The notes: a model not told the origin generated them from the sequence alone. A stretch of DNA of 64,000 nt from an uncultured Chloroflexia bacterium (GCA_963708065.1 CAVPRZ010000009.1:28702-92701), one strand, 5' to 3'; counted from the first letter of the stretch, positions 5,080-38,965 are shown. Translations and numbers: made by a program.

Positions 5080-8000
5080 TCAGGACCGGCCGGCGACCTC
5101 CCGGTCGCTCGTCTCCGGGGTCGAGGCGGTCGCGCTCCCTCCCGGCCGGTCCCGGGTCGCGGCCGCGAGCCAGTCGACGTACGGCCGGGCGCGGACGCGC
5201 TCGAAGACGGCCCGCGCATGGTCGGCGGCAGCGCGCAGCTCCGGCGCGTCCGTCCCGAGGAGCAGGATCGCGTCGAGCTCGACCTGGGCGAGCGCGAACT
5301 CGTAGCCGAGGGCCGCATACCGCTCGAACGCGTCGCGGTAGCCGGCCAGGGCCTCCTGCCGCCGGCCCTCCAGGGCGGCCAGCCCGGCACGGGTTGCGAC
5401 CCGGACGGCGAGCGTCGCAGCCCGGTCGGCGTCGGGAGTGGCGTCGAGCTGGGCCAGCACCTGCCGAACGAGGTCCGGGTCCCGGCTCCAGAGGGCAGGA
5501 CGCGCGGCCTCGGTCTGGTAGATGCTGGCGAGGCCGCGGAACTCGGCGGCGGACATGAACTCCCCGAACGCCGTCCGGTTGTCGCCTCGAACGAGCGCCC
5601 GATCGCCCTTCAGCGCGTGCACCTGGGCTGGATTGAGCGGATCCGACAGCTGCTCGGCGGCCGACTCGAGGATCCGCAATGCGTCGTCCGTCGGCTCTCC
5701 TCGGGCAGCGCGGATCAGGCAGATCGACGAGAGGATGCTCGCCTCCTCGGACACGTCGCGAACGGTCGCGAGCGCCTCATCGGCCTTCGCAAGCACCGCG
5801 TCCCAGTCGCCGCCGTTCAGCCAGGTGCCCGCCACGAGGGACTGGATGATCCAGTTCGCCATCTGGCGGTTGCCGACCCGGCAGGCGAGCTCGTAGTTGG
5901 CGGCCTGCATCTCGATCACCCGCCGCGGCTCGCTCGACCAGAGCGTGCTGGCCAGGTTGCTCCGGGCACGCAGCTCGGTCGAGATGTCACCGCTCTCGTG
6001 GGCGATGACGATCGCGGCCTCCATGAGTGCGCTCGCCTCGCGGACCCGACCCAGGTACGAGAGCGACGAGGCCTTGTTGTTGAACGCGTCGGCGATGACG
6101 ACCGTCAGGTCGAGCCGCTCGGCGATCGGCAGGGCCTGGTCGGCAACCTCGACCGACCGCTCGAACCGGTCGGTTCGCATGTACGCCCGCGACAGGTTCG
6201 CCAGCAGCCTCGCCCGGACATCGTCGGGAACGTCGGCCGGCAGGCTCGCCAGGGCGGACTCGAGAACCTGGGTTGCCTCGCGCGGGTCGAGGGCGTTGAG
6301 CAGGATCGCGCCGAGCTCGGCCGTGGCCCGGGCGGCCCCCGCCCCGTCGCCTGACCGCTGGAGCTCGTCGATCGCGCGGCGGGCGAAGGCAACCGCCGCC
6401 TCGTGGTCGGAGGCGTCGGAGGCCGACAGGGCGGCACGCTCGAGGAGCGGCCCACGTTCGGCCGGATCTGCGGTGACGTCGAGGCCCTGGACGAGGTAGG
6501 CGACGGCCTGATCGTGAGCGCCGAGCGTCGCCGCCCGGGCGGCCGCCCCGCTGAGCGCGAGCCGGGCCTGGATGGCCACGGCGGAGGCCTCGGGCCCCTC
6601 GCTCGACGCCCGGTAGGCCTCGACGTAGTGGGTCGCAAGCGCGCCGGCCAGCTCGTCCTCGCCGAGCGTCTCGAAGAACCGGGCGACCGCGAGGTGGCGG
6701 GCCCGTCGCTCGGGTCGGGCGAGCATCCCGTAGGCCACCTCGCGGATGAGCGACTGGACGAAGCCGTACTGCCCGCGCTCGGGTGACCGCGGATCGACCT
6801 CGAGCTCGAGGAGCTCGCGCCGGATGAGAACGCGAAGCCGGCCCTCGAGGTCCGCCTCGTCGCGCCCGGTGACCGCGGCCAGCCCGGCCAGGGTGAACGT
6901 CTGGCCGAGGACCGCCCCATCCTGGACGAGGCTCCGGTCGGCCGGGTCGAGGGCGTCGAGGCGCGACGCGATGAGCGAGCGGAGCGTCTCGGGGATGGCC
7001 AGGTCGCCGAGCTCTCCCACCGGCCGGTAGGCACCGTCGACGAGCTCGAGGCGACGATCGGCCACGAGCGCCCTGACGGTCTCGACCGCGTAGAGCGGCA
7101 CGCCGTCCGCCCGGGCGAGGATCGCCCCGACCGCGGCCGGCGGGAGTCCCGGCACGAACCCGTCGAGCAGCTCCCGCATCGCCTCGTCCGACAGCGGCTC
7201 GAGCGCGACCGCCGTGAAGTTGCGCGAGCCGACGCCCCAGTCCGGGCGCTTGTCGAAGAGCTCCGGGCGGGCGAGGGTCACGACCAGGATCGGCACGCCG
7301 CGCGACCACTCGACGAGATGGTCGATGAAGTCGAGCAGGCCGCTGTCGGCCCACTGGAGGTCCTCGAACAGCAGGATCGTCGTGCCCCGGGTGGCGATCC
7401 GCTCGAAGAAGGTTCGCCACGCCCCGAACAGCGCGTCGCGCCCGCCCGGCGGCGGGGGCTCGAGGCCGAGCAGGGTGAGGAGCGCCGGCTCGACCCAGCG
7501 CCGGTCGTCGGCGTCGGACACGAAGTCGGCCACCGTCTCGGCGATCCGTCGCCTGGTCGTCGCCTCGTCGTCGGTCTCGGCCAGGCCGGCCCGCCGGCGG
7601 ACCATCTCGCCGAGCGCCCAGAACGTGATCCCGTCGCCGTAGGCGGGCGACCGGCCGCGATGCCAGTAGACGTCGTCGACGAGGCCGTCGATGTACTTCT
7701 CGAGCTCCCAGGCGAGCCGGCTCTTGCCGATCCCGCCCGGCCCCGTCACCGAGACGAGGCGCGTCCGCCGGTCGCGTCCGGCCGCACCGAGCACGTCCTT
7801 GAGCAGGCGGAACTCCTCGTCGCGTCCGACGAACGGCGGCTCGGGCAGGTCCGTCCGACCCTGGCCACCGCGCTGGGCGACGACCCGCAGCGCGCGCCAG
7901 GCGGGGACGGGGGCGCTCTTGCCCTTGAGCGACTGGTCGCCGACCGCCTCGAACGCGATCGCCGACGCCGCCGCCCGATGGGTCGAGTCGCCGACGAGCA

Positions 8001-8665
8001 CCCAGCCGGGCAGGGCGACCGACTGGAGGCGCGCGGCGGTGTTGACCAGGTCGCCGGCGACCATGCCCTGGTTCGCCGCGCCGAGCGTGACCGCGGCCTC
8101 GCCGGTCAGGACGCCGGCGCGCGCCTCGATCCCCGGCCCGAGCCCCCGGACCGCGTCGACCAGCTCGAGCCCGGCCCGGACGGCCCGCTCCGCGTCGTCC
8201 TCCTGCGCGGTCGGGGCGCCCCAGACGGCCATCACCGCGTCGCCGATGAACTTCTCGATCGTCCCGCCGTAGCGCCCGATGACGTCGCTGGCGAGCTCGA
8301 AGTAGCGGGTCAGCGTGTCGCGGACGTCCTCGGCGTCGCGCTCCTCGGCGAACGGCGTGAACCCGACCAGGTCGGCGAACAGGACCGACACGAGCCGTCG
8401 CTCGGCGGTCGGACCCGGACCGGTCCGAGCCGGCCCCGAGCCGTAGGGGCCGGCCGATCCGCCGGATGTCACCGCGACGGCCGCGGTTGCGCCGGCCTGG
8501 AGCGGCTGACGCGCACTCGCCGCAGAACTTGGCGTCGGCGCCGTTGGCCGCGCCGCAGCTGGGGCAGGTCACGGCCAGCCGCGTGGCGCATTCCTTGCAG
8601 AACTTGCGCCCGGCCTCGTTCTCGGTCCCGCAGCTCGAACAGATCACGACCGTTGACTCCGGCAC
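5080..8665 (-). pseudogene. double zinc-ribbon / class III adenylate-guanylate cyclase / AAA (STAND) ATPase / TPR multidomain protein, one frame break near 8505-8515
   Basis: 1130-aa ORF: VSVLFADLVGFT...KFIGDAVMAVWG (cyclase), VTGPGGIGKSRLA (P-loop), then a long helical-repeat C-terminus. The upstream segment VICSSCGTENEAGRKFCKECATRLAVTCPSCGAANGADAKFCGEC is colinear but in another frame. Confidence 0.85.
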
Positions 8666-26488: not shown

Positions 26489-26595
26489 GCGCGGCCCTGG
26501 CCGGAGCCCCGGGCCTGGCAAACGCGGCCCCGATCAGGGCCGGGAGCGGATGGTCATCCGGCTCCCGGACCCCGATGGGGAGACCGCGAAGAGAC

Positions 26596-27507
26596 TCAGC
26601 CCGGGTTGGTCGTGGCGCCCGGCGACGCGTTCGGCTTGGCGTTCGGGCCGAACTTCCAGCCCGGACCGGGGCCGCGGAACATCCCGCCGACGCCCGCGTG
26701 GACCGACGTCGCATCGAGCGAGCCATCGGAGCGCTGGGTGCCGCTGGCGACGATCCACGAGCCGACGGTCACGTCGGACAGGGCCGCGTCGGTCTTGCCG
26801 GCCACCGTGTAGGCGGTGCTGCCGCTGACGTGGACGGTCGATGTCGTGCCGCCCGGAAGGGTGATCGTGATCGTGTCGCTCGTCTTGGCCGTGACCTGTC
26901 CGGCGACGGTGGGCAGGATCACGTCGATCGAGGTGACGGTGTAGGTCCCGTCGCTGGCCCGATCCTGGCCGAGCCGGACGGTGTCGCCGACCTTGATGTC
27001 ACTCACCGTGGCCGGGGCGCCGCCGCGGGTGACCTTCGTCGAGTCGCCGACCGTGATCGTGCGGGTCCAGCCGTCGGCCGTCTTGAGCGAGACGTTGGAG
27101 CCGTTGACCGCAGTGACCGTGATCGGGCCGACGGCCGAGCCGCCGCCGCGACCGCCGAACGGCCCTCCGCCAAAGCCAAACCCGAAGCGGAACCCGCCGA
27201 TGGAGGGCAGCTTCTTCGTCCCGTCGCTCGGCTGCTGGGTCGAGGTGTTCGGCGTCGGCGCGGTGGTTGCGGCGGGGGCGTTCGGCGAGGCGTCGGTCGG
27301 TGACGGCGACCCGGTGGTCGGCGTCGGGGCGGTTCCTGCCGATGCGTCGGGCGAGGCGCCGGACGGCGACGGGGACGGCGACGCGGCGAACGCCACGGCG
27401 ACGCTGCAGACGGCGACGAGGACGGCCCCGGCGATCAGGCCGATCCGGACGCGGTCGGACCGACGGATCGTCTCGCTGAACCGGACTTCGGGCTCGGATG
27501 GGTCCAT
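26596..27507 (-). CDS. secreted DUF5666-like repeat protein
   Basis: N-terminal TM/signal, Pro/Ser/Thr linker, then three similar beta-units (ITVTAVNGSNVSLKTADGWTRTITV.., TVTSIDVILPTVAGQVTA.., VSGSTAYTVAGK...). Confidence 0.7.
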   Translation of the reverse strand: MDPSEPEVRFSETIRRSDRVRIGLIAGAVLVAVCSVAVAFAASPSPSPSGASPDASAGTAPTPTTGSPSPTDASPNAPAATTAPTPNTSTQQPSDGTKKLPSIGGFRFGFGFGGGPFGGRGGGSAVGPITVTAVNGSNVSLKTADGWTRTITVGDSTKVTRGGAPATVSDIKVGDTVRLGQDRASDGTYTVTSIDVILPTVAGQVTAKTSDTITITLPGGTTSTVHVSGSTAYTVAGKTDAALSDVTVGSWIVASGTQRSDGSLDATSVHAGVGGMFRGPGPGWKFGPNAKPNASPGATTNPG

Positions 27508-27681
27508 GGAGTCCTCCGTGAGACTTGGGCACGCAAGGGGAGGCGGGGCGGATGCGGTGCCCCACCGTCCAAGCGTGCCGCCCGATCCTTCGAAGGTCCT
27601 GAGAAGGTCCGTAACCCGCCCGACAGGCGAGCCAGCGCAGAGTCGCCTGAAGCCCGACTATTACGCCACGGAGGCGACCCG

Positions 27682-28491
27682 ATGGACCAGCGACCAAACC
27701 ACGCCACCGCCCGGATCATGCTCGCCGCCGGAGTCCTGTCGGCGTTCATCGCCTCCATCTCGACCGTTGCACTGGTGGCCCTTGCCCCGACGGGTGCTGG
27801 GGGCGACACCGGAGCGGCCGCCGCGCCGGCCGCGACGAGCACGTCGACCGGAGGGACCGGCTCGCTGACCAGCTCGGGCGTCGTGCTCGACGACCCGGCG
27901 ATCGTCGCGGCGGCCGACCCGTCGGTGGTCACGATCGCAACCGACGCGGGGCGGTCGAGCGGGGTCGGCTCCGGGATCGTTCTCACCTCGGACGGGCTCA
28001 TCCTGACCAACGACCACGTGATCGCCGGCGGCGGCGCGCTGAGCGTCGCGCTGTCGGACGGACGGACGCTCGACGCGACCGTCGTGTCGGAGGACGCCGC
28101 GAACGACCTCGCCATCATCCGCGTGGCGGCGACCGGCCTCACCCCGGCCAGGCTCGGCGACTCGACGAAGGTCCAGGTCGGCGAGAGCGTCCTGGCGATC
28201 GGCAGCCCGCTCGGGACCTACACCGAGTCGGTGACGAAGGGGATCGTGTCCGGGCTCGACCGCGAGATCACCGTCCGGAGCGAGACCACCGGCCGCCCGA
28301 TCCACCTGACGGGCCTGATCCAGACCGACGCCGCGATCAACCCCGGCAACAGCGGCGGCCCGCTCATCGACGAGACCGGCGCGGTCATCGGGATCACCAC
28401 CGCCACCTCGGCGAACGCCGAGGGCCTCGGCTTCGCGATCCCGATCGAGACCGCGAAGGCGCTCATCGCCGCCGCCGAGGGCAGCGCCTGA
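27682..28491 (+). CDS. trypsin-like serine protease (S1C/HtrA-like, no PDZ)
   Basis: TNDHVI (His), NDLAIIRV (Asp), GNSGGPLID (Ser); N-terminal TM anchor. Confidence 0.85.
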   Translation: MDQRPNHATARIMLAAGVLSAFIASISTVALVALAPTGAGGDTGAAAAPAATSTSTGGTGSLTSSGVVLDDPAIVAAADPSVVTIATDAGRSSGVGSGIVLTSDGLILTNDHVIAGGGALSVALSDGRTLDATVVSEDAANDLAIIRVAATGLTPARLGDSTKVQVGESVLAIGSPLGTYTESVTKGIVSGLDREITVRSETTGRPIHLTGLIQTDAAINPGNSGGPLIDETGAVIGITTATSANAEGLGFAIPIETAKALIAAAEGSA

Positions 28492-28586
28492 TCCGCATCC
28501 CCCAGCGCCCTCGTCCATGAGCACCTGCGATCGGGCACCCCGGGTCGTGGAGCCTGCCCACGGTCCCAAGTCGCCTAGGACACGCT

Positions 28587-28785
28587 GGATATCAGCACCA
28601 TTGCTATCGGGCGCACTTCCCGACCCGCGTTCCTCCCGCCGCTGAATGAGACAGACGTCTGTGCCGCCTGATATGAGCGTCACTGCGTAGCGAGGGTGGA
28701 TAACCGGCGGATCTCGGGGCGGCCGAAGGGTTCCTGCTCGCCAGGCTGCCGCCACAGCGGTCTGCTAAGAATGGTGCTGATATCC
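28587..28785. other. 199-nt element closed by a perfect 16-nt inverted repeat (candidate structured RNA or MITE-like element)
   Basis: GGATATCAGCACCATT at 28587-28602 and its exact complement AATGGTGCTGATATCC at 28770-28785. Internal palindrome ACAGACGTCTGT. No credible ORF. Lies between the protease gene and msrA. Confidence 0.5.
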
Positions 28786-28888: not shown

Positions 28889-29575
28889 ATGCGTTTCCTG
28901 TTCAAGGCTCCGGCCATGCCAACGCCGACCGAGGCTCTGCCCGGCCGGCCCGACCCCATCGACATCCCCGAGCGGCACTACGTCAACGACGCCCGCCTCG
29001 CCCCGCCGTGGCCGGACGGGACGCGGACCGCGGTCTTCGGTTTCGGCTGCTTCTGGGGCGCCGAGAAGACGTTCTGGCAGACACCCGGGGTGATCTCGAC
29101 GGCCGTCGGCTACGCCGGCGGGTCGACGCCCAACCCGACCTACGGCGAGGTGTGCAGCGGGAAGACCGGCCACGCCGAGGTCGTGCTCGTCGCCTACGAC
29201 CCGGCGAGGGTCTCGTACGAGGAGCTCCTCCGGGTCTTCTGGGAGGACCACGACCCGACCCAGGGCATGCGCCAGGGCAACGACGTCGGGACCCAGTACC
29301 GCTCGGTCATCCTCGTCGGGAACGAAGCCGAGCGACGGATCGCCGAGGCCTCACGGGCCGCCTACGCGGAGCGCCTCAAGGCCGCCGGCTTCGGCGACGA
29401 TCACGACCGAGATCGTCGACGCCGCGCTCGACGCCGTTCTACTACGCCGAGGACTACCACCAGCAGTACCTGGCGAAGAACCCGAGGCCCGGCTTATTGT
29501 CCTGACCACGCGACCGGCGTGAAGTTGCCGGACGACTTCGCCATTCCGGTCACGCCGTTGCAGTACGTCGACTGA
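28889..29575 (+). pseudogene. msrA: peptide-methionine (S)-S-oxide reductase MsrA; three frame breaks in the last 200 nt (net zero)
   Basis: [14 protein letters not shown] active site, [36 protein letters not shown]. The segments [25 protein letters not shown] and [12 protein letters not shown] lie in three successive frames. Confidence 0.85.
29479..29575 (+). repeat. R0: msrA 3' end in place (..[34 protein letters not shown])
   Basis: Read directly. It has two extra codons relative to the other copies. Confidence 0.9.
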
Positions 29576-29697
29576 GCCCGACGCTTCGACGTCACGTCCT
29601 GATAGGAACCGACTCCGACGCAGGGGCCGCTGACATCACGGACTCACCGGGTGATGCCCTTGCGACCTCGGGTGCCTCAGGGCACTATCCCGTTGAG

Positions 29698-29982
29698 ATG
29701 GGACCGTTACGAAGCAGATGGGCGCGGGGGGCCGTGCTCTGGACGCTCGCCCTGTTGGTCGTCGCAATCGGGCTTGCCATCTTTGCGTCCGCGAGTCTCG
29801 TTGACGCTCAGCAGAGGTGCTTCGTCGAATTCCCGTCCGTCGCCTGCCCTGACGGACAGGATTGGCGGGTGGGGCTCCTGACCTTCGCGTTCCTCGGCGT
29901 TCCCCTCGTCTGGGTCGTCGGACTGGTCGTGGCCATCGCCGGTCGCGCTGCCTCGAAGCGGCGGCCGGAGCGCCGCCGGTAG
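29698..29982 (+). CDS. cassette 1 cargo: small two-TM membrane protein (94 aa)
   Basis: AVLWTLALLVVAIGLAIFA and LLTFAFLGVPLVWVVGLVVAIAG flank a Cys-containing loop. The basic tail ends 31 nt before R1. Confidence 0.5.
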   Translation: MGPLRSRWARGAVLWTLALLVVAIGLAIFASASLVDAQQRCFVEFPSVACPDGQDWRVGLLTFAFLGVPLVWVVGLVVAIAGRAASKRRPERRR

Positions 29983-30013
29983 TCTCGGGCAGTACGCTGA
30001 CTCGTATCTTCGA

Positions 30014-30109
30014 GAGAACCGAGGCCCGGGAGCGTATTGCCCGGACCACTCGACCGGCGTGAAGCTGCCGGATGACTTCGTGGTCACCCCACTGCAGTAC
30101 GTCGACTGA
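30014..30109 (+). repeat. R1: msrA 3'-end copy ([34 protein letters not shown])
   Basis: Direct alignment to R0; differences are mostly at third codon positions. Confidence 0.9.
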
Positions 30110-30225
30110 CTACGGGCCCGAGCTAGAATTCGCGTGCGCTCCTGCAGAAGCGGAAGCCGACGTGCGGCCACATGGGCTTCATGCCCACCACCGCCGGGTT
30201 CGGCCGGACCGCGAGGTCACGACGG

Positions 30226-30900
30226 TTACTGGCGCCGGAGCACGATGGCTACGCGGGTCCCCGACATGACACATCGCGCAGGTAGCTCCGGCGCAACCGG
30301 GCAGGCGTGGGCATTGCCACCAGGGTGCGTCGCGAGGAAACGAGTCAGCGACCGCGGGCTGGTCATGGCCGTCGGCCTCTGCTCATTCTCGCTGGGCGGC
30401 TGCACGCGGTCCGAGCGCACGTAGTTGAGGAACACGTGGTCCCGGAGCTTCCGGGCAAGGAGCGCGTTCTCATCGTCTCCGATGGCCGCGAACACGGTCT
30501 CCAAGATGTAGGCGTACATCGAGGTCGCGATGGCCTCGATGTCCTCGGGATGCCACGGGCTCTTGTCGCCTACCCACTCCCACTCGCTCGGGCCGATCTC
30601 ATCGGCGGTCGCCTTGAAGCTCGACGCATCTGTGTGCTCCCACGGGCTGAAGGTCTTGTAGGCGTACACGTAGGCGTCGTTCATCACGATCTTGTGGCCG
30701 GGGTACTTGGTGATGACCTCGTTCGCCATACGTCGGAGGTTCGGGAGGATGCGGTCCTTGCCGTAGTTCTTCCCCAGCTCCTTCAGCTTCGCGAACGCGG
30801 CGTCACGGGTGGCCTCCTTGATGGGGGTCGGGTCCTTGGGGTCAACCGGGATGGACGAGCCACGGTCCTTCGCGTGTTCGCGGATGTCGACACCCGGCAG
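30226..30900 (-). pseudogene. cassette 2 cargo: 5'-truncated gene of unknown function
   Basis: The frame is open, with coding-like third positions, from 30945 downward. There is no ATG/GTG/TTG before the internal Met at 30729. The coding-like sequence starts abruptly at the edge of repeat A1. Confidence 0.45.
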
Positions 30901-30903
30901 CCG

Positions 30904-31026
30904 CGGAGACCGTCCCGTCGGTCGCCTTCCGATGGGTCTGCTGATTTAGACTCCCGGCGGGCTACTCTCCTGACCGCCGGATGGGCAGGGCTCCGCCGTC
31001 CGTTCGCATGGTCGTCACGAGCAGCA
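30904..31026 (+). repeat. A1: about 120-nt imperfect direct repeat, copy 1
   Basis: Shares with A2 CGGAGACCGTCCC, CTCCCGGCGGGCTACT and a 34-nt identical block CCGCCGGATGGGCAGGGCTCCGCCGTCCGTTCGC. Contains the small dyad CCGGCGG..CCGCCGG. Confidence 0.8.
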
Positions 31027-31126
31027 GCCTCATCACGCGACTCGCGTGCCGTACGTTGAGCACTCTGACGGCCAATCGTCGCCGCCGGATGCGCAGGATG
31101 GACGCCTCCCCGGACCCCGGTCAGCC

Positions 31127-31244
31127 CGGAGACCGTCCCATCGCCTCCGCCTTCCGATTCGGTGCAATTCAACTCCCGGCGGGCTACTTCCCGCCGCCGG
31201 ATGGGCAGGGCTCCGCCGTCCGTTCGCTGGTCGTACGACGCAGC
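31127..31244 (+). repeat. A2: about 120-nt imperfect direct repeat, copy 2 (offset 220-224 nt from A1)
   Basis: As for A1. Confidence 0.8.
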
Positions 31245-31601
31245 GTGCCGGCTCGCGAAGTCGGCTGAGTCGAGGTAACGCCGGACGGTCATTTCGATGG
31301 CCTCGACTGGTTCGTCCGCATTGCGTCTCAGGTCTTCGTAGTACTCAAACCCCTCAGGCGTTACATCGAAGAGTCGGTCACCGCTTCGGTTGTAGTGGAG
31401 ATTGACGAGGCCGTAGCGCGCGAGCATGTCCACGTCTGAGGCGAGGATGCGTGGCTGAACGGAGCTGTGGGGGTGCATCAGGAAGTCGCCCGCGCTTGTC
31501 TCAACCACGAGGAAGCTGTCGCGCTCCTCTCTCGGCAGGCCGCGTATCGCCTCAACGGCGGTGACGAGGAGGCCCTCCTGCGCTTGTTCGAGTCGAGCCA
31601 T
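31245..31601 (-). CDS. cassette 2 cargo: hypothetical protein (3' end uncertain)
   Basis: ATG at 31601 (MARLEQAQEGLLVTAVEAIRGLPREERDSFLVVETSAGDF...). The ORF stays open through A2 and A1 down to 30783, but beyond about 31245 it becomes low-complexity, so the real stop is unclear. Confidence 0.4.
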
Positions 31602-31708
31602 TAGGAAAGAATAGGGGTGAGCCCGGTCACAAAGAACGCGACGACGTCTGTCGGGTAGCGGTTGGTCTTGCCGAGGTCGTTGTGAACGAGCAATACCCTG
31701 ACCTGTCT

Positions 31709-31796
31709 GAGAATCCCGGGCTACTGCCCGAACCACGCGACCGGCGTGAAGTTGCCGGACGACTTCGTGGTCACACCTTTGCAGTACGTGGACTAA
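31709..31796 (+). repeat. R2: msrA 3'-end copy (..[29 protein letters not shown])
   Basis: Direct alignment; TAA stop. Confidence 0.9.
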
Positions 31797-31982
31797 GCGT
31801 CCCTACTTGATCAGCGCTGGATCTCGCGAGGCTCCTCGAAGAGTTCCGTCGACGTCGGCCCTTCCGAACTTACGAGCGCACCGATGAGTCAGACGGCAAG
31901 TCACCAGCCGCCGAGACTACCGGATCAGGGTGCGCGTCCGCGGCCGGCGAGGGAGACGAGGTCGCCTACCCGTCATCGAGGA

Positions 31983-32915
31983 CTACGTGCCGAAGACGAG
32001 CGTCCCGCCCTCCCCGAGCCTCAGCGTCAGCTGGCCGCCCTCGATCGCGTAGCTCGATGCGTTGCCGAGCCCGACGACGTAGAGATCGCCCATCGAGCCG
32101 GGCGGGCAGGCGGCCAGCGTCGACGGTCCGGGCAGGATCGAGATCGACCCGCCTCCCGGTTCGAGGCCTATATCCGTGCGACCATCGCCGCGGTGTACCT
32201 CGTACGTCCCGCTGACCTGGTTGCAGTCGGCCTTTGCGTTGAACGTCCCGTCCGCCTGGAACTCGATCGTGTATTTCGACTGGTCCGCCTCGGGGACCAC
32301 GCCCTGGAACGCCGGCGTCGTCTCCGTGATCCCGGTCAGCTTCCACGTCTTGCCGAGCAGCTCGGCGGGCGGGCTCGCGCCCGGGGCCAAGGACGCCTCG
32401 GCGCTCGACTGGGCGCTCGACGGAACGGCCTGCAGCGGGCCGAACGTCATCGTGCCGCCGTCGGTCAGCGCGATCGTCAGCGTGTCGTTCGTCACCGCGT
32501 ACGTGGCGGCCTCGGTCAGCGAGTGGGCGAAGATCGATCCGAAGTCGCTGTCGGGACAGAACGCGAGCGTCGGCGCACCCGCGGTGATCGTCAGACCGTT
32601 TCCGCTCGTCTTGTAGGTCCCGGCGATCTGGTTGCAGGCGGCGGTGCCCGAGTACGTGCCGTCCGTGTTGATCGTGATCGTGTAGTCCGGCTGTTGGTAG
32701 GCCGGGACCACGCCCTGGAACGCCGGCGTCTTGCTGGTCACCGCGGTCAGGGCCCACGGCTTGCCGGTCAGGGTCGGTCCGCTCTGCTTGTCGGCGCTTG
32801 CTCCGCTGGCAGCGGGCGCCGACGCGGTCGTCGCTCCGGACGATCCGGCGCCGCAGGCGGTGAGGAGCGTCGCGGCAATCGCGAGGGCGATGCCGAACGG
32901 TGCGGTGAGTTTCAT
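31983..32915 (-). CDS. cassette 3 cargo: lipoprotein with two META (HslJ-like) domains
   Basis: MKLTAPFGIALAIAATLLTAC lipobox with AAGGGGGA 7 nt upstream. Two units of the form W.LT....P.FQGVVP......YTI.F..DGT..G.A.CN...GTY.... Confidence 0.8.
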   Translation of the reverse strand: MKLTAPFGIALAIAATLLTACGAGSSGATTASAPAASGASADKQSGPTLTGKPWALTAVTSKTPAFQGVVPAYQQPDYTITINTDGTYSGTAACNQIAGTYKTSGNGLTITAGAPTLAFCPDSDFGSIFAHSLTEAATYAVTNDTLTIALTDGGTMTFGPLQAVPSSAQSSAEASLAPGASPPAELLGKTWKLTGITETTPAFQGVVPEADQSKYTIEFQADGTFNAKADCNQVSGTYEVHRGDGRTDIGLEPGGGSISILPGPSTLAACPPGSMGDLYVVGLGNASSYAIEGGQLTLRLGEGGTLVFGT

Positions 32916-33107
32916 GCGGGACGTCCCCCTTGGCGGGTGGCGTTGTCGGTCGAGCCGACCGGGTCGGCGAACGCTGCCGATTGTCTGGGCGCCCGCCACG
33001 GCGCGCGATGGTGCCACTGCTCTAGCTGAGAATCCACTCTGAGCCCTCAAATCGCGTGCATGGATACGAGCATATATGGCCCACTCGAACGGCAGCCTGA
33101 CTTGCCT

Positions 33108-33197
33108 GAGAATCCCCGGGGCTACTGTCCGAACCACGCGACCGGCGTGAAGCTGCCAGATGACTTCGTGGTCACGCCGCTCCAGTACGTCGACTAG
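33108..33197 (+). repeat. R3: msrA 3'-end copy ([32 protein letters not shown])
   Basis: Direct alignment; TAG stop. Confidence 0.9.
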
Positions 33198-33277
33198 TCC
33201 TGCCCGCCCGAAGACGATGAGACCCTCCCGACGCCGGGAGGGTCTCTGTCATTCGGTCGAACGTTGGGGAACAAGGG

Positions 33278-34111
33278 TTGGACCAGGAATCGTTGCGCCG
33301 CGACATATGCTGGGATGAGATGACCGCGGCCCCGGATCCCGGACCAGACAACGAGGAGTTCTGGCGCAACTTCCTCACGCGTGGCGATGCGATGGAGCGC
33401 AAGGTCAGGCGTGTCTTCAAGCGCATCCCCCAGGGGCCGCGCTGCAAGTTGTGCGCGGCACCCTTCGCCGGCGTCGGTGCGCCACTCATGCGCATGATCG
33501 GGAAACGGCCCTCCGACAAGAATCCGACCATGTGCAATTCCTGCTTCGCCTTCATGGTTCGACACCACGGCGGTGCTGAGATCGAATGCAGCTTCCTGTT
33601 CGCTGACGTGCGCGGCTCGACCACCATCGCCGAGGGCATGTCCGCGACCGACTTCCGCAGCCTATTGGACCGTTTCTACTCGACGGCGTCTGCAGTCGTT
33701 TTCGATCACGACGGCAGCGTAGACAAGTTCGTTGGCGACGAGCTCGTGGCGATGTTCTTTCCGCTCCTTAGTGGTGAGCAGCATGCAGCGCGCACGGTGG
33801 AAGCCGCCCAGGCCCTGCTGGTGGCCACAGGACACGCCGATCCGGGTGGGCCGTGGCTGCCACTCGGCGCGGGGGTGCATACCGGTCCCGCGTGGGTCGG
33901 AACGGTGGGTGACAGGGCGCACGTCGAGCTGACCGCGCTGGGCGACACCGTCAATACGACGGCCCGGCTCGCATCGGTCGCCAAGGTCGGCGAGATCCTG
34001 GTCACTAAAGCCGCTGCCGATGCTGCTGGCCTAGATCCCGCGCTCGAACACCGATCTCTCGAGCTCAAGGGCAAGGAATTCCCCACACAGGTCGTTGTCG
34101 TCCGAACTTGA
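33278..34111 (+). CDS. cassette 4 cargo: class III adenylate/guanylate cyclase with N-terminal Cys4 zinc-ribbon-like segment
   Basis: CKLCAAPF...CNSCFAF, then ECSFLFADVRGST...KFVGDELVAMF...GVHTGPAWVG...LGDTVNTTARL. TTG at 33278; alternative ATG at 33320. Confidence 0.8.
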   Translation: MDQESLRRDICWDEMTAAPDPGPDNEEFWRNFLTRGDAMERKVRRVFKRIPQGPRCKLCAAPFAGVGAPLMRMIGKRPSDKNPTMCNSCFAFMVRHHGGAEIECSFLFADVRGSTTIAEGMSATDFRSLLDRFYSTASAVVFDHDGSVDKFVGDELVAMFFPLLSGEQHAARTVEAAQALLVATGHADPGGPWLPLGAGVHTGPAWVGTVGDRAHVELTALGDTVNTTARLASVAKVGEILVTKAAADAAGLDPALEHRSLELKGKEFPTQVVVVRT

Positions 34112-34185
34112 TATGACCGAGAGTGCGGGCGAGCCATACGAAAGCAGCTCTGCTAGCCCCAAGGCTGGCCATAATCTGACGCGCT

Positions 34186-34275
34186 GAGATTCCCCGGGGG
34201 TACTGCCCGGACCATCGGACCGGCGTGAAGCTGCCCGATGACTTCGTGGTCACGCCGCTCCAGTACGTGGACTGA
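34186..34275 (+). repeat. R4: msrA 3'-end copy ([32 protein letters not shown])
   Basis: Direct alignment. Confidence 0.9.
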
Positions 34276-34322
34276 ACCAACACCGCTCAACCGTGAGCCG
34301 GCCGGCCGGTTGACCGACTACG

Positions 34323-34943
34323 ATGCCGGGAGGAGGGCGTGAGATAACCGACCCGATCGCGGACATCATCGGCGACTACCGAGCGTTCGCGGCCCAGCAG
34401 CGCGACCGGTTGCTGGCGCGTGGCATCGACATCGCCCTGTACGCGCTCAGCCACCTCGCATACCGGGTGCCCGAGTGGGACCAGTACGTCCAGGTCCGGA
34501 CGCTCCTCGAGCGCCACGCGACCTCGAATCGGGAGAACGTCTGGAACGGCCGCCCGATCTCCTTGATCGTTCCCGCCAAGCCGCTCGAAGTCCTGGAAGG
34601 CCAGGTCGTCCCGCTCATCGAGCTCATCCCGCCCGTCCACCAGCGCGTCTACAAGATGGGGCTGGAGCACCTCGGCGTCGTGGTCGGCGACACGTTCGAC
34701 ACGTTCGTCGGAGCCCACAAGCCCGTCCTGACGGGCCAGCAGTTCCAAGGCCCGAACAGCACACCCGACCCTGTCTACATCCTGTTCGAGGACTTCACCC
34801 ACGTGAAGTTCTATCGACTGTCACTGCAGGCATCCGTCGAGATCGATGGTGGCCGGTTCGAGGACGGGTTCCACCACGTCGACGACTGGGTGCCCCAGCG
34901 GCTGGTCACGGCGACCGGCCCCAACCCCCTTCCCCGGGACTGA
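34323..34943 (+). CDS. cassette 5 cargo: VOC-fold, YecM-like metalloprotein
   Basis: LSHLAYRV, GLEHLGVVVGD and THVKFY are spaced as in YecM/VOC proteins. The assignment is from memory of the family, not a search. Confidence 0.55.
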   Translation: MPGGGREITDPIADIIGDYRAFAAQQRDRLLARGIDIALYALSHLAYRVPEWDQYVQVRTLLERHATSNRENVWNGRPISLIVPAKPLEVLEGQVVPLIELIPPVHQRVYKMGLEHLGVVVGDTFDTFVGAHKPVLTGQQFQGPNSTPDPVYILFEDFTHVKFYRLSLQASVEIDGGRFEDGFHHVDDWVPQRLVTATGPNPLPRD

Positions 34944-34978
34944 CGTGGCCGGGTGACCGACGCGACAGTAGTCTCGCG

Positions 34979-35074
34979 GAGAACACAGGCCCGGGAGCGT
35001 ATTGCCCGAACCACGCGACCGGCGTGAAGTTGCCGGATGACTTCGCGGTCACGCCGCTGCAGTACGTGGACTGA
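34979..35074 (+). repeat. R5: msrA 3'-end copy ([34 protein letters not shown])
   Basis: Direct alignment. It is the distal-most copy, so under an integration model it is the candidate ancestral 3' end. Confidence 0.9.
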
Positions 35075-35255
35075 CGCCTATCGGCGGGGTCCTGATCGCT
35101 GTCGCGCTGCTCAGCCAGCTGGCATAGCCGACCGGGCTTCGTCGGACCGTTCATGACACTCGATCCGTTTGACGGGCCGACCCCGCGGCGCCTAGGCTCA
35201 GGTCACGGGCGCTGCGCCGCATGCGCCAGGTTGCCCGAGGGATGGAGGGCTCGCA

Positions 35256-35513
35256 ATGATTCGGCGGATCACCGGGATCATCCTTGGAGTGGTGGCCTTC
35301 TTGATCGTGTACTGGCTCTCTGGCGGGACGGCGACACCGGCCACGCCGAACTGGGCACTGGCGATCCTCGTCGGGCTGGTGGTGGCGCTCATCTGGCCGT
35401 GGATCATGGGCCTGATCGTGGTCAGGCGCACTCGGCAGCGCCGCCAGAACGAGATCGACCAGGAGGTCCAGAAGCAGCTCGCGCAGCAGCAGAACAACCC
35501 ACCACCCTCCTGA
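35256..35513 (+). CDS. small two-TM membrane protein (85 aa)
   Basis: ITGIILGVVAFLIVYWL and ALAILVGLVVALIWPWIMGLIVV, followed by a basic/Gln-rich tail. Confidence 0.5.
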   Translation: MIRRITGIILGVVAFLIVYWLSGGTATPATPNWALAILVGLVVALIWPWIMGLIVVRRTRQRRQNEIDQEVQKQLAQQQNNPPPS

Positions 35514-35862
35514 TCCCCGGGCCAGGCGCGCCGCACAGCAGCCCCACCTGGCGGTCGAAGGTCGGCGCGTCGAACGGCTCGCGGTCGAGCGGCGAGGGCG
35601 CGAACGAGATGCCCCAGAAGTCGGTCGAGCCGACCCCCGGGTACCGGCCGATGATGTCGAGGTCGGTCTGGGTCGCGAGCTCCGAGCCCAGCCGGACGCG
35701 CCTCGCGACCGGGAGGTATCGCGGCACGTAGCGGGCGAGCTTCTCGACCGCCTCGTCCTCCGTCTTGCCGCCCCGTTCGAGACCCGGCCAGTCCGCCGCG
35801 ACGGCGACCCAGCGCTTGCCGCGCGTGGGCTGTTCGATGAGCACGCGAAGCCGGGACGTCAT
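35422..35862 (-). pseudogene. hypothetical protein, probably 3'-truncated or frameshifted
   Basis: The N-terminal 100 aa look protein-like (MTSRLRVLIEQPTRGKRWVAVAADWPGLERGGKTEDEAVEKLARYVPRY...). The last 45 aa are low-complexity and overlap the opposite-strand TM ORF. Confidence 0.35.
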
Positions 35863-35868
35863 CCCGCG

Positions 35869-36687
35869 TCACGCCCCGGTCGAGTCGCGCTCCCACGCGC
35901 GCCCGAGGACCCACAGCGCGATGTTCAGGGCGAGCACCCAGATGAAGAGCACGCTCAGGGCGATGGCGGCAAGCAGCAGGATCGAGCGGATGCTGTCGAC
36001 CGTGCTGTCGGCCTTGGCCTGCAGAGCGGCGAGGCTGGCCGACAGGCCGCGGACCGCCGTGGCACCGCCCGAGATCGCGTCCTTCACCGGGGTCGCGCGG
36101 CCCGCGAGGGCCTCCGCAACGGCGGCGCCCGGCTGGGCGTCCGCGAGGCTCGTCCACGTCGAGACGATCGCGTCGTCGATCGCCTGGATCTTGGCGTCAA
36201 CGGCGGCCAGCGTATCTCCCGCACCTTCAGGGACCCTTGTTCCGGGAATGATCCGGGCGATCTGCTGGAGCGTCGACATGACGCCGACCACGTTCTCGCG
36301 GGCCTCGGCGTAGCTGACGCGCGCCTCGAGATACCGGTCCGAGATCTGCCCCAGGCGGGCCTGCAGGTTCGACAGCCGGGCCAGGTCGGGGGTGCTGCTG
36401 GCAGCCAGCGCGGCGGCGTCCGCCCGCATCGTGTCGATCGCGGCGACGGCCTCGTCGAGCCGGCCCGCAACCGCATCGGTCGCCGTGATGGCCCGGCCGA
36501 ACCCGCTGTTGACGTCGTTGCCGAGGTCGTCCACGGCCCGGGAGACGGTCCCGAGCCCGAACCACACGGCGACGATGATCAGGGCGCAGATGACGACGCC
36601 GATGATGCCTGCGACCTTGGCCGCGACGGCCTTCCGCGGCGCGCGCTGGGAGGTGACGGGCCTGAACATCGGCGAGGTCTCGGACAT
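35869..36687 (-). CDS. membrane protein with N- and C-terminal TM segments and long Ala-rich helical ectodomain
   Basis: Internal ATG at 36687 of the 702-aa composite ORF. Contains VAGIIGVVICALIIVAVWFGLG and LLLAAIALSVLFIWVLALNIALWVLG. Confidence 0.6.
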   Translation of the reverse strand: MSETSPMFRPVTSQRAPRKAVAAKVAGIIGVVICALIIVAVWFGLGTVSRAVDDLGNDVNSGFGRAITATDAVAGRLDEAVAAIDTMRADAAALAASSTPDLARLSNLQARLGQISDRYLEARVSYAEARENVVGVMSTLQQIARIIPGTRVPEGAGDTLAAVDAKIQAIDDAIVSTWTSLADAQPGAAVAEALAGRATPVKDAISGGATAVRGLSASLAALQAKADSTVDSIRSILLLAAIALSVLFIWVLALNIALWVLGRAWERDSTGA

Positions 36688-36809
36688 GGGACGGTCTCGG
36701 ATGGGAGTTGGTGGGGCGATGATGACAGGTCCGGGCAATCGTCCGGCCCAGGCTGTCAGGCCCCGGGAGAGCAGCCTCCCGGGGCCTTGTTGACGCCCCC
36801 AGTCGGACG

Positions 36810-37977
36810 CTACTTGCGGCTGTTGTAGCTCGCGAGCCCTTGCCAATCGCCCCGAACCGCGTACGACGCCTGGGTCGGCCATGTATCGAGGCTCGAGGGT
36901 GGCAGCGCCCCGCCCTGCGCGATGATCTTGCGCAGATCCGAGGGATCGGTGTGCTCGAGCTCGGCGTAGGTCGTCACGCCGCCGTCGGACAGGATCGAGG
37001 AGATCCGTGGCCCGATCCCGTTGAGCTGGGTCAGGTCGTCGGGCGCCGCGGCCTTGGCCGCCTTCGACTTGCGTCGCGCCGCGGTGGCTCGGCTCGGAGC
37101 CTCGCTTGTTGTACTTCATCAGGCCCTGCCAGTCGCCCTTCGCGGCATAGGTCGCCTGCATCGGCCACGACGCCACATTGGCGGGCGGCACCATGTCCGC
37201 CTCGTGCAGCGCATGCCTGAGTTGCGGCTCGTTGGCCTCGGCCAGCGCCGCATAGGTCGTGATCCCCGCCGTCGCCAGCGCGTCGCTGGCCTTGGGCCCG
37301 ACGCCGGAGAGCTGGGTCAGGTCGTCGGCGGTCGCGGCTGGCGCCGCAACCGCAGCGGGCGCCGCCGCCGCGGCCGGCGTGGCAGCCTCAGCCGGCGCCT
37401 CCTCGGGAACTTCCACCTCGTAGTCCGACACGACCTCGGCGCCGCCGAGCTGCTCCACCGCCGGGTCGACGAGCGCCTTCAGCGCGGCTGCCTTCTCAGG
37501 GGGCAGCGTGCTCGAGATCAGGAGGGCCTTATCGGTCGTGAGGGCCTGCTCGATCATCCCGATGGATCCGGCCCAGTTGCCTTCATACAGGATGAAGAGG
37601 GCGCTCTTCCCCTTGTCGAGCTCCTTCGTGACCTGCCGCATGAACTTGTCGTCGATCCCGATGTCGTGCATGCGGTTTCGCAGCCCATTCAGGACGCCAC
37701 CCGCGGCGCCGCCGACGACCGCACCGGCCGGCCCGAGGACGATCGCGCCGACGATGACACCGAGCCCGGCGCCACGGGCGGCGCCCTTCGCGCCGCCGAG
37801 ATCCGCGGTCTGATGAACCTTGACCCGGAACCTGGTCCGGTCGGCGATCGCCGCATCGACGATCTTGACGTTGGGGTCGACCTCGTCGATCTCCTGGATC
37901 CGCTTCAGGAGTCGCCTCGACTGCTTGCCCGTGTCCAGCACGAACGCGGCAAGGGTCTGACCGTACTCGTCGCTCAT
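36810..37977 (-). pseudogene. DUF1269-like membrane protein fused to two helix-hairpin-helix repeats, frame break near 37090-37100
   Basis: Gly-zipper GAARGAGLGVIVGAIVLGPAGAVVGGAAGG. Repeat 1 is DDLTQLSGVGPKASDALATAGITTYAALA...WPMQATYAAKGDWQGL. Repeat 2 (DDLTQLNGIGPRISSILSDGGVTTYAELE...WPTQASYAVRGDWQGL) is in another frame and ends at TAG 36810-36812. Confidence 0.7.
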
Positions 37978-38346
37978 CTATCCAGTCTCCTCTCAGCAGG
38001 GACTGTAAGGCCCCACAGTTGTGGTTACGTGCATCTTGTCTCGGCTGGAATCAACGCATCGGACTCCACCAGTCGGATCTCGCCCTCGGGGTCGGCTTTG
38101 ACGAGGGCTGCGGGAGGTCAGTCACGTCGTGATCAGGGTGTTCGTGGCGCTGAGGCGCCCATCAACGGACAGTGACCGAGCCTTCAGACACCTCCTCCCT
38201 CGAGCCTGCCGGATGGCCATCTCCGAGGTGCGTGAGGCCCTCGAAAAGGTGCCAGGCGGACGTCCGACGATGCTAGGCTTCGGCGGCCCGCCATGCAACC
38301 ACGATCGGGCGCTCGGATCGGAGCGGGCATCGCACCGAACGGAGGG

Positions 38347-38883
38347 TTATCCGCCGGCCGCGGCAAGGATCGCCGCGAGATCGTCGACGTGGTCCTCGTA
38401 GTGCGCGGTCGTCTCGCTGAGGAAGAAGCGCTGGTGATCGGCGTGCTTGAGCCAGCGACTCTCGGGCACGACCGTGAGGTAACCGCGGAGCTGTCCCGGC
38501 AGCGTGCCGAATTGGGCGCGCAGGTCAGCCATCGAGAGCGCCGCCCAGCGTGCATCGATCTCGGCGTTCACGACCTCCCCGCCTCGCGTATCCCAGTCTG
38601 CGTCCGCGCGCTCCTTGGCGGGACTCGTCTCGTTCACTGCCAGCTCCGTGGCGACGGCGAGGGCGACATCGTGCCCGGAGAGCAGATGTCCCATCAGCTG
38701 GCGACCCGACCAGCCGTGAGCGCCGGCGACGGGGACGCCGAGTTGTTCGTCGCTCAGGTCCGCGAGCGCCTCGAAGGGCCGGAAGGCCTCGCGCTCTTCG
38801 TCGAGGAAGTCGAGTGCGTCGAGATACATGCGGTGCATCGTAGCCGCCACGACCCGGACCACCCTGACGGCGATGAATCCCAA
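38347..38883 (-). CDS. DinB-family protein
   Basis: WSGRQLMGHLLSGHD ... TTAHYEDHVDDL. The start is more likely the Met at 38838. Confidence 0.7.
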   Translation of the reverse strand: MGFIAVRVVRVVAATMHRMYLDALDFLDEEREAFRPFEALADLSDEQLGVPVAGAHGWSGRQLMGHLLSGHDVALAVATELAVNETSPAKERADADWDTRGGEVVNAEIDARWAALSMADLRAQFGTLPGQLRGYLTVVPESRWLKHADHQRFFLSETTAHYEDHVDDLAAILAAAGG

Positions 38884-38965
38884 CGACTATGGATCCACAT
38901 CGCGACGGGCGTGACGTGTCCGATCGGAGTCGGGGTGGATCCCGGGGCCACCTAGACTCGACGCC

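Follow-up and report, generated by a model that had tools for sequence, protein, structure and literature searches.

Directly downstream of msrA, the gene for peptide methionine sulfoxide reductase, in DNA from an uncultured Chloroflexia bacterium (GCA_963708065.1 CAVPRZ010000009.1:28702-92701), the 3′ end of that gene recurs in tandem, and each copy is separated from the next by a short segment carrying unrelated genes. The whole 64,000-nt stretch that was analysed is called the window here, positions are counted from its first letter, and loci and contigs from other sources are given L numbers. An earlier note, made from the window sequence alone, had described six direct copies of the msrA end, each encoding a conserved tail plus a stop codon, with five mutually unrelated segments between them; all of this held when the region was re-examined. 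The array is real, widespread in related genomes and dynamic. Its parts are msrA, which serves as the anchor gene, the copies R0 to R5, and the intervening cassettes 1 to 5 (repeat-finder boundaries are in brackets where they differ).

28916-29575, plus strand: msrA, peptide methionine sulfoxide reductase, the anchor gene (Pfam PMSR, 1.1e-49)
29477-29575, plus strand: R0, the gene-attached msrA end, attL-like, with a K-type tail (29479/29488-29575)
29576-30013: cassette 1, with a 94-amino-acid (aa) open reading frame (ORF) with two transmembrane segments at 29698-29982, plus strand; no Pfam match
30014-30109, plus strand: R1, subtype ENxGPGAYCP, 91% identical to R5 (to 30110)
30110-31700: cassette 2, with minus-strand ORFs at 30226-30945 and 31270-31604; no Pfam match
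31701-31796, plus strand: R2, cassette-arm subtype CCTGAC..TCTGAGAATCC (to 31797)
31797-33101: cassette 3, with a lipoprotein with two META domains at 31983-32915, minus strand (Pfam META, 1.1e-30, two stretches)
33102-33197, plus strand: R3 (to 33198); Logan contig L001 begins inside it
33198-34179: cassette 4, with a class III nucleotidyl cyclase at 33278-34111, plus strand (Pfam Guanylate_cyc, 5.6e-13)
34180-34275, plus strand: R4 (to 34276)
34276-34978: cassette 5, with a YecM-like protein at 34323-34943, plus strand (Pfam YecM, 1.7e-15)
34979-35074, plus strand: R5, the last intact K-type copy (to 35075); Logan contig L273 crosses it into the flank

The six copies, all on the plus strand, were grouped by the repeat finder into families D1, D2 and D4 of 97, 53 and 29 nt, with pairwise identities of 70-91% to the reference copy. 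When a profile made from them was run against the 64-kb window with nhmmer, the copies were rescored at E values of 1.8e-20 to 6.4e-27 and the next-best match anywhere had an E value of 0.02, which excludes chance similarity. Their alignment has 61 invariant columns, concentrated in ..CCACnnGACCGGCGTGAAGyTGCCnGAyGACTTCG..GGTCACnCC..CAGTACGTsGACTrr, and each copy translates to ..YCP[DN]H[ASR]TGVKLPDDF[VA]VTPLQYVD followed by a stop codon. Two subtypes can be distinguished, one comprising R1 and R5 and the other R2 to R4. The five spacers have no mutual similarity, and no tRNA, tmRNA (transfer-messenger RNA) or Rfam family was found in the region. An in-frame 6-nt insertion, ATTCCG (Ile-Pro), is present at 29540-29547 in the tail of R0 only. 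The earlier note had given a repeat length of about 90 nt; in cassette-borne copies the homology to msrA reaches ~45 nt further upstream. Its cargo assignments stood for the double META protein, the cyclase and the YecM-like protein, which have the corresponding Pfam matches, and cassettes 1 and 2 have none; cargo genes do lie on either strand, with those of cassettes 2 and 3 on the minus strand.

Recurrence of the feature was measured by scanning a strict 29-nt core pattern against one genome per species, 185,579 species in all. The pattern occurred in 52 stretches, every one of them in metagenome-assembled genomes (MAGs) of Chloroflexota/Candidatus (Ca.) Limnocylindrales that came from several projects and assemblers. 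In a profile search of these 52 loci, msrA was always directly upstream of the first copy and further copies had the orientation of msrA; the sole inverted copy seen (L034, 563-644) is opposite to the rest of its array. A protein query with the whole of MsrA returned, among the matches listed (at least 600), MsrA of unrelated phyla and missed the closest relatives, so a tail-only alignment was used for a second scan, which yielded 79 species-level loci with 10-kb flanks. Thirty-eight of these loci have one copy, 20 have two, 10 have three, 2 have four, 5 have five, 2 have six and 2 have seven; arrays of 2-7 copies are thus present in 41 of the 79 species-level Ca. Limnocylindrales genomes. The core pattern was also found in 60 soil metagenome contigs; their arrays contain as many as six copies, and a large number of the short contigs stop inside a copy. 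Searching the protein database with the tail peptide gave 392 matches, and the best 120 of the 392 are all products of 31-86 aa, namely orphan mini-ORFs and short msrA fragments with a PMSR Pfam match. Some arrays (L229, L218, L221, L137, L190 and L016) include copies merely 15-50 nt apart, or "empty cassettes".

Two Logan contigs from run SRR28023191 cover part of the window array itself. L001 is 100% identical to window positions 33161-34268 and spans R3, cassette 4 and R4, and L273 is 99.8% identical to 34239-35172 and spans R4, cassette 5, R5 and the flank. Because these contigs independently reproduce its junctions, the structure of the window is not an assembly artefact. The earlier note had named two outcomes as fatal to its interpretation, a concatenation of strain variants by the assembler and a fixed order of the same segments in related genomes. 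Neither occurred: independent assemblies reproduce the window junctions, and array content differs between relatives.

The closest comparison is provided by a soil contig from a near relative, L216. It is 94% identical to the window upstream of the array (26502-28630) and 91% identical over msrA, and downstream it is 97.5% identical at the nucleotide level to window positions 31701-32805; cassettes 1 and 2 are absent, and cassette 3 directly follows msrA. The single copy at this junction is a hybrid. Its 5′ side resembles R0 (TATTGTCCTG), whereas its 3′ side resembles R2, with no ATTCCG insert, ACACCTTT and the stop codon TAA. A 34-nt stretch at the junction, CACGCGACCGGCGTGAAGTTGCCGGACGACTTCG, is identical in the L216 copy, R0 and R2. 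The earlier note had proposed looking in relatives for presence or absence of single segments with breakpoints inside the repeat, and L216 is such a case.

Pairs of cassettes shared between other loci place the boundaries of the exchanged unit within the copies as well. The third cassette of L040 matches the first cassette of L034 at 95% identity, and the identity extends from ~30 nt before the end of the left copy, through the cargo, to ~55 nt into the right copy. In averages taken over 34-90 pairs with a common cargo start, the left copy shows excess identity from about alignment column 73-85 onwards; in averages over 8-23 pairs with a common cargo end, that of the right copy stops at about column 58-60. 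Linkage to the cargo changes over between columns ~58 and ~85. Cargo thus travels with the 3′ part of its left copy and the 5′ part of its right copy.

Cassette content turns over extensively. The 89 inter-copy segments in the 79 loci and the window have a median length of 964 nt (interquartile range 511-1266 nt), and only 7 are 2 kb or longer. They hold 129 cargo ORFs, 75 on the plus and 54 on the minus strand, which fall into 76 families, 23 of them represented in two or more genomes. The same cassette can occupy differing array positions (third in L045, first in L003 and second in L032), and the YecM module is found inside arrays as the second cassette of L036 and L034, the first of L051 and the fourth of L033, as well as just past the last copy in ~10 loci. 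The META lipoprotein of the window is 94.5% identical at the aa level in L178, whose msrA is 73% identical, and the YecM protein is likewise 94.5% identical in L153, where the identity of msrA is 71%. A DUF1269 protein is 95% identical in L174 and L189, where msrA is 87% and 77% identical, respectively, and the upstream protease is 68% identical in L174. Cargo that is 94-97% identical in aa sequence where msrA is 71-87% and the protease ~68% identical shows that cassettes are horizontally exchanged between genomes. No downstream gene family occurs in more than ~20 of the 79 loci, and those that recur do so at variable distances. Pfam matches among the cargo include ABM, Glyoxalase/VOC, zinc ADH, MarR, alpha/beta-hydrolase plus cyclase, TMEM175, SnoaL and esterase, and also DUF2652, DUF4259, Imm5-like, adenosine deaminase, aldo-keto reductase, nucleoside deoxyribosyltransferase, GNAT and RibD_C, a spectrum reminiscent of the cassettes of chromosomal integrons.

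The tails of the copies are of two classes. Copies that appeared to be 5′ halves run on after ACCGGCGTG with AGCTGCCCGGTCGGGCTCGGGGTC, encoding TGV-SCP(V/I)G(L/V)GV.. up to a stop, which is the classical, Cys-containing S-type tail. A reading of these as "half-sites" left by recombination at pseudo-sites was ruled out, as the 5′ halves continue into complete S-type ends (TGVSCPxGxGV). Twelve S-type copies were classified in the loci, 5 last in their array and 7 internal, and K- and S-type tails occur within the same arrays. In L275 (SPCO01000022.1, labelled Thermomicrobiales; 5799-7999), two further S-type copies come after an S-tailed msrA, and the second bears the cassette-arm signature described below; a K-type tail is thus no requirement of the system, and scans based on that tail under-sample it. 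No homology between K and S tails could be detected in the DNA (alignment z -0.7 to 3.2). Derivation of the K-type tail from the S-type by frameshift is unsupported, with z values of -0.7 to 1.3 for 5 of 6 S-type tails and 3.2 for one. It follows from the non-homology that exchange between a K and an S copy must take place at or 5′ of GGCGTG, within at most ~40-55 nt of imperfect homology, which would be a poor substrate for RecA but is expected for a defined core site.

A second element of the site lies 5′ of the core. On the 5′ side of GGCTACTGCCCG, all copies other than the msrA-attached ones have a common arm, GGCAGTAsGCTGACCyGTCTGAGAAyCC, whereas the resident msrA genes have CAGCAGT------ACCTsGmsAAGAAyCC at this position, a difference of a 6-nt indel plus substitutions that sets the cassette arms apart as a lineage of their own. 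K arrays and the S array of L275 alike carry the signature, next to cargo that is unrelated. In the 185,579 species genomes a gapped arm pattern matched eight stretches only, all of them Chloroflexota msrA arrays. Because the arm is never part of a translated gene, its conservation points to a function at the DNA level. On the soil contig Ga0299913_10006026 (L254, 4712-5271), a full K-type copy, cassette arm included, comes after a VOC/glyoxalase-like gene, and neither msrA nor a left copy is found within 5 kb upstream of this VOC cassette; it could be a secondary-site insertion or a rearranged array.

The 3′ halves of inner copies retain a coding-like pattern. Their mismatches to the consensus at codon positions 1, 2 and 3 are 0.08, 0.08 and 0.23, compared with 0.02, 0.02 and 0.16 in gene-attached copies; this constraint, relaxed but still coding-like, fits tails that once served as an msrA end. 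The contrast between the never-translated 5′ half and the translated 3′ half is only one of degree (odds 2.2 vs. 3.4). An 8-bp inverted repeat, CGGCGTGA and TCACGCCG separated by 21 nt, surrounds the inferred crossover and recurs in predicted folds. The folding energies of the copies are unremarkable (z -0.6 to -2.9), and an attC-like folded site was ruled out on the grounds of these energies and of conservation that resides in sequence and not in structure.

Beyond R5, the window contains a region without intact copies and then a degenerate one:

35075-38861: distal part of the island, without intact copies, with minus-strand genes (Pfam)
35185-35868, minus strand: broken DinB-like gene
35872-36780, minus strand: unknown gene
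36810-37115, minus strand: HHH_5 gene
37123-37977, minus strand: DUF1269 + HHH_5 gene
38350-38886, minus strand: unknown gene
about 38862-38955, plus strand: decayed seventh copy, with a classical MsrA tail ending in ..IATGVTCPIGVGVDPGAT and a stop (nhmmer E 0.02, model positions 3-68)

The seventh copy had been missed in the earlier note, which counted the six intact ones. It aligns with R3-R5, including the CCCTGAC arm, and has a 1-nt deletion in the YCP codons that causes a frameshift. It is probably the original msrA end pushed downstream, an attR-like relic. Genes of this distal part are found inside the arrays of L151, L189, L146, L033 and L024 at 88-97% aa identity; because the genes between R5 and the relic occur inside arrays elsewhere, we read the island as spanning 29576 to about 38955. 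The proposal in the earlier note that attL/attR logic applies is supported by the hybrid copies, the L216 polymorphism, the displaced end and the small, integrase-less units.

Upstream of msrA lies a conserved flank that includes a trypsin-like serine protease at 27682-28491 on the plus strand (Pfam Trypsin_2, 3.7e-35), and the order histidine kinase, GT39, DUF5666, protease, msrA is also found in L174, L151, L212 and L170. Three-frame translation shows that the window msrA loses its reading frame at three points in the interval 29397-29500, by +1, +1 and -2 nt relative to five relatives. Similar breaks affect the genes at 35.2-37.1 kb, and msrA is split in several other MAGs of the same project (MFD); three genes that are separate in L151 form one fused 702-aa ORF in the window (35872-37977). 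Because other window genes and MAGs of the same project break in like manner, the frame breaks in msrA are most likely long-read consensus errors and not biology.

Several further features of the window cassettes were recorded. Cassette 1 is also first in the array of L009, at 87% identity, and an exact look-up of its protein gave no record. In cassette 2 a segment of ~115 nt is duplicated 220 nt apart (30893-31007 and 31116-31227; repeats D8/D12) and includes a 34-nt perfect direct repeat, CCGCCGGATGGGCAGGGCTCCGCCGTCCGTTCGC; this could be a small tandem duplication or a miniature element. The 162-nt direct repeat D3 (32199-32360 and 32610-32771, 72% identity) corresponds to the two META domains of cassette 3. 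Class III cyclase domains also appear elsewhere: in a large window ORF at 5083-8568 (cyclase-like motifs recognised by eye only), in the hydrolase-cyclase cargo family (L206, 10279-11655), and in a 1199-aa DZR-cyclase-AAA_16 gene directly after an array (L279, 10333-13932).

A catalyst was sought in the window, in the cargo and in the flanks. No tyrosine or serine recombinase was seen among 41 window ORF translations inspected by eye or 17 window proteins searched with Pfam. Motif scans for both families over ~130 loci with up to ±10 kb of flank gave nothing besides one doubtful match to the serine recombinase N-terminal motif, in L040; the co-occurring recombinase that the earlier note had suggested looking for was thus not found near the arrays. 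Representatives of 52 cargo families of at least 110 aa (10 pseudo-proteins by Pfam, the others by eye) included no recombinase, and the precomputed Pfam annotation of three further contexts of 12-20 kb lists no recombinase, Resolvase or Recombinase. Among the 129 cargo ORFs, which come from 41 arrays, no integrase, intact or fragmentary, and no phage, conjugation or replication gene was seen, and very small, integrase-less units, as the earlier note had described them, are the rule everywhere examined. No autonomous element with the msrA-end site turned up in the genome, metagenome or viral scans. A phage origin was rejected in the absence of matches in IMG/VR scans.

Taken together, these data lead us to favour, with moderate confidence, a chromosomal array of integrase-less mini-cassettes that restore the msrA end and are moved site-specifically by an unlinked recombinase. 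Most of these cassettes hold one or two genes, and the median distance between copies is about 0.7-1 kb. No recombinase was found in cis; the gene for the dedicated enzyme would lie in another part of the genome or on a helper element, free cassettes would be circular, and insertion would occur mostly at the msrA-proximal copy. According to this model, the free cassette would be a circle with one attachment site of about 110-130 nt, composed of the cassette-specific arm, a core matching msrA coding sequence (..TAYTGYCCSrAYCACnnnACCGGCGTG..), and a full replacement tail with its stop, either K-type or classical S-type (SCPxGxGV..). This site would recombine conservatively with the msrA end or with any copy already in place, the crossover lying within about CACGCGACCGGCGTG(AAGyTGCC). 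The msrA gene would keep its own 5′ part and gain the tail of the cassette, and the former tail would be pushed behind the cargo. Repeated insertion would build an array, and the reverse reaction would delete cassettes.

A number of observations weigh against this model. The catalyst is hypothetical, because no recombinase was found in the window, the cargo or the flanks. No circular form or excision junction was observed, and IMG/VR scans for the core pattern, tail peptide and cassette-arm pattern detected the site in no viral contig. The crossover can be placed no more finely than ~15-30 nt because the core is nearly invariant, and the crossover zone is the longest identical tract, the place where RecA, too, would be active. 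Segments of 15-50 nt between copies are too short to have been circles and need a secondary explanation; they are probably cargo deletions. In addition, several modules that lie within the array of one genome sit past the last detectable copy in another, which implies that array boundaries are often lost.

The main rival, which we consider unlikely, is that the same architecture was built by RecA-dependent homologous recombination and no dedicated recombinase is involved. DNA with an msrA end on either side of its cargo, or an excised circle, could integrate in the Campbell manner through ~90 nt of homology; alternatively, a double crossover could use the body of msrA as left arm and a copy as right arm. 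Either way the process would feed itself after the first duplication. It would account for the lack of a recombinase near about 140 arrays and for junctions, including that between L216 and the window, that fall in the longest shared perfect tract of 34 nt. Some third-position excess in the 5′ halves of inner copies (the odds of 2.2 given above) would fit crossovers that sometimes lie further upstream, and the highly conserved msrA would offer a long homology anchor between species. However, the homology is short, about 90 nt at 77-91% between copies and only ~40-55 nt for K with S, and the cassette arms keep their own signature and have not been homogenised with the resident msrA. The arrays are also confined to one gene end, although any conserved gene could provide an anchor, and the untranslated arm is conserved over ~65-70 nt across unrelated cargo, a pattern that suggests a protein-binding site.

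A second alternative, which appears rather improbable, is that the segments are non-mobile, decayed remnants of larger integrase-bearing elements, whether integrative and conjugative elements (ICEs), integrative and mobilizable elements (IMEs) or prophages, that integrated successively at msrA and afterwards suffered deletion of their integration and transfer modules, in parallel with the cis-mobilizable remnants of islands accreted in tandem. Such decay is documented for the ssrA islands of Dehalococcoides, 15 of 31 of which have no integration module (PMC3146451), and for tRNA islands with degenerate elements (tycheposon preprint, bioRxiv 10.1101/2020.12.28.424599), and some distal parts of the msrA arrays, such as 35.1-38.9 kb in the window, have lost their copies. 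Yet neither the 129 cargo ORFs nor the further contexts contain any remnant of a mobility gene, and the units are uniformly tiny, as their length distribution shows. Moreover, a single-gene unit recurs with the same boundaries at other positions in distant genomes at 94-97% identity, and the recurrence of such identical units makes independent decay unlikely.

We find it very hard to believe that the copies work as silent cassettes from which the MsrA C-terminus is varied in a programmed way, comparable to pilS or orphan toxin-tip arrays, with the genes between them incidental. S and K tails, with and without the recycling-type Cys, do alternate in arrays, and inner tails do keep their coding-like constraint, but K-type tails are nearly identical in protein, so that swapping them changes nothing; diversity resides in the 76 families of cargo, and it is the cargo, not the tail, that is exchanged at high identity. 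Finally, an assembly artefact in which strain variants of one msrA end were concatenated with different flanks can be dismissed almost entirely: the window has consensus-type frameshifts and short-read contigs break at copies, but the copies differ by 9-30% and so are not collapsed identical repeats, arrays occur in dozens of MAGs from varied studies, technologies and assemblers (contigs of up to ~2.9 Mb as well as k141 short-read scaffolds), the two Logan contigs reproduce two successive cassettes with their copies, and the logic of the hybrid copies is consistent across genomes.

Should the enzyme prove to be a compact and highly specific recombinase with a ~40-nt site, it would also be an interesting tool. 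Ca. Limnocylindrales, in which the system is widespread, is a soil lineage that is abundant but uncultured, and the ~30-nt core together with the arm signature provides a sequence handle for measuring gene flow in soil Chloroflexota, for finding the recombinase, and for asking whether other conserved gene ends host mini-cassette arrays. Standard island and integron finders miss such arrays because they are keyed on integrases, tRNAs or attC structure.

Elements that insert into the 3′ end of a gene and supply a new end, that accrete in tandem and include units without an integrase, are already known for other target genes. The earlier note had stated that it knew of no described system using msrA in this way; the literature search likewise found no report of integration at msrA, nor of cassette arrays in Limnocylindria, but the general principle is known from ssrA, rlmH, fda and tRNA genes. 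In Dehalococcoides, genomic islands (GIs) at ssrA are arranged in tandem with 20-bp repeats, and 16 of 31 carry DsiB/DsiA, the others being proposed to be cis-mobilizable (McMurdie et al. 2011; PMC3146451). These ssrA-GIs resemble the msrA arrays in belonging to Chloroflexota, in following a single-copy conserved gene in tandem, in having repeats of the target 3′ end, in varying in number by strain, and in that about half have no integration module. They differ in that their target is a tmRNA gene with a 20-bp repeat and not a protein gene with a repeat of ~90-130 nt, and in being multi-gene islands extending over up to 100 kb, with a serine-recombinase module next to attL in 16 of 31; no unit in about 140 msrA-array loci carries such a module, and no DsiB/CcrB-like large serine recombinase with a small partner was found at the attL position.

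Staphylococcal cassette chromosome (SCC) and pseudo-SCC elements integrate at the 3′ end of rlmH (orfX) in staphylococci and restore the gene end. Like the msrA cassettes, they restore the 3′ end of a conserved protein gene and occur in tandem with direct repeats, and some have no recombinase genes and need Ccr in trans. Their repeats, however, are ~15-20 bp long and the elements 3-60 kb, and the well-characterised CcrAB or CcrC is available on at least one element of the island or in the population, whereas no counterpart was found at the msrA arrays. In Streptococcus thermophilus the 3′ end of fda is the site where ICESt1, ICESt3 and cis-mobilizable elements (CIMEs) accrete (cited in PMC3146451; IME review, PMC5704250). 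Here too a protein-gene 3′ end is the target, the attachment (att) sites carry a replacement end, and integrase-less units accumulate in tandem. Pavlovic et al. 2004 reportedly proposed an accretion model for ICESt1/ICESt3 with CIMEs. CIMEs differ in being one or two in number, kilobases long, and adjacent to a mobilising ICE, whereas msrA arrays have no ICE and can comprise 7 or more units, each of ~1 kb. As in CIMEs and pseudo-SCC elements, each msrA unit is flanked by att-like sites and lacks integration and transfer genes, the function of these sites being deduced from turnover only.

Tycheposons of Prochlorococcus tRNA islands also integrate successively, older elements being pushed inwards and partial target copies remaining between them (bioRxiv 10.1101/2020.12.28.424599). 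They share with the msrA arrays successive integration at one site, target copies between units, and adaptive accessory cargo; they differ in targeting tRNA genes, in carrying tyrosine recombinases and replication modules, and in numbering 1-2 elements per genome. The msrA units do have the direct-repeat flanks of islands at gene 3′ ends, one of which completes the target gene (the L216 hybrid is a direct example), and they have no integrase of their own next to the att-like site. Xer-dependent elements such as IMEX and pdif modules have sites resembling the dif motif, a 28-bp sequence with an AT-rich centre bound by XerC/XerD (ATAATG..ATTATG). The msrA core, TACTGCCCGAACCACGCGACCGGCGTGAAGCTGCCGGA, is GC-rich and on inspection has no dif-like centre.

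In scale, the arrays resemble integrons, a likeness that the earlier note had pointed out. Sedentary chromosomal integrons and clusters of attC sites lacking integron-integrases (CALINs) have units of ~0.5-1.3 kb, mostly one gene per cassette, and arrays that vary between relatives. Unit size, long variable arrays and one site per cassette are shared with the msrA arrays, as is cargo of VOC/glyoxalase proteins, GNAT enzymes, small membrane proteins, regulators and immunity-like proteins. The differences lie in the machinery. There is no intI beside the msrA array (motifs within ±10 kb of ~130 loci, window ORFs and the three contexts), and the site is a sequence-conserved mimic of a gene end and not an attC hairpin, with no GTTRRRY core visible in the copies and the unexceptional folding already described; attC sites are imperfect palindromes with R''/R' cores (RYYYAAC/GTTRRRY) whose structure, not sequence, is conserved. 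Integron cassettes are mostly promoterless and share the orientation of a platform promoter; in the msrA arrays, cargo on both strands implies that no common Pc-type promoter logic operates.

To our knowledge, no well-understood system other than the integron builds up long arrays of cassettes with one gene each. More tentatively than the site-specific model itself, we suggest that soil Chloroflexota may possess an undescribed chromosomal gene-capture platform parallel to integrons, in which cassettes with msrA-end-mimicking sites of ~110-130 nt would be moved between species by an unlinked recombinase, possibly of a family not yet associated with cassette capture. Swaps between Cys-containing and Cys-less MsrA tails would, on this proposal, be a side effect. 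Compared with integrons, the msrA arrays have reached an integron-like outcome by a different route, with a gene-end-restoring att site on each cassette and no integrase adjacent to the array.

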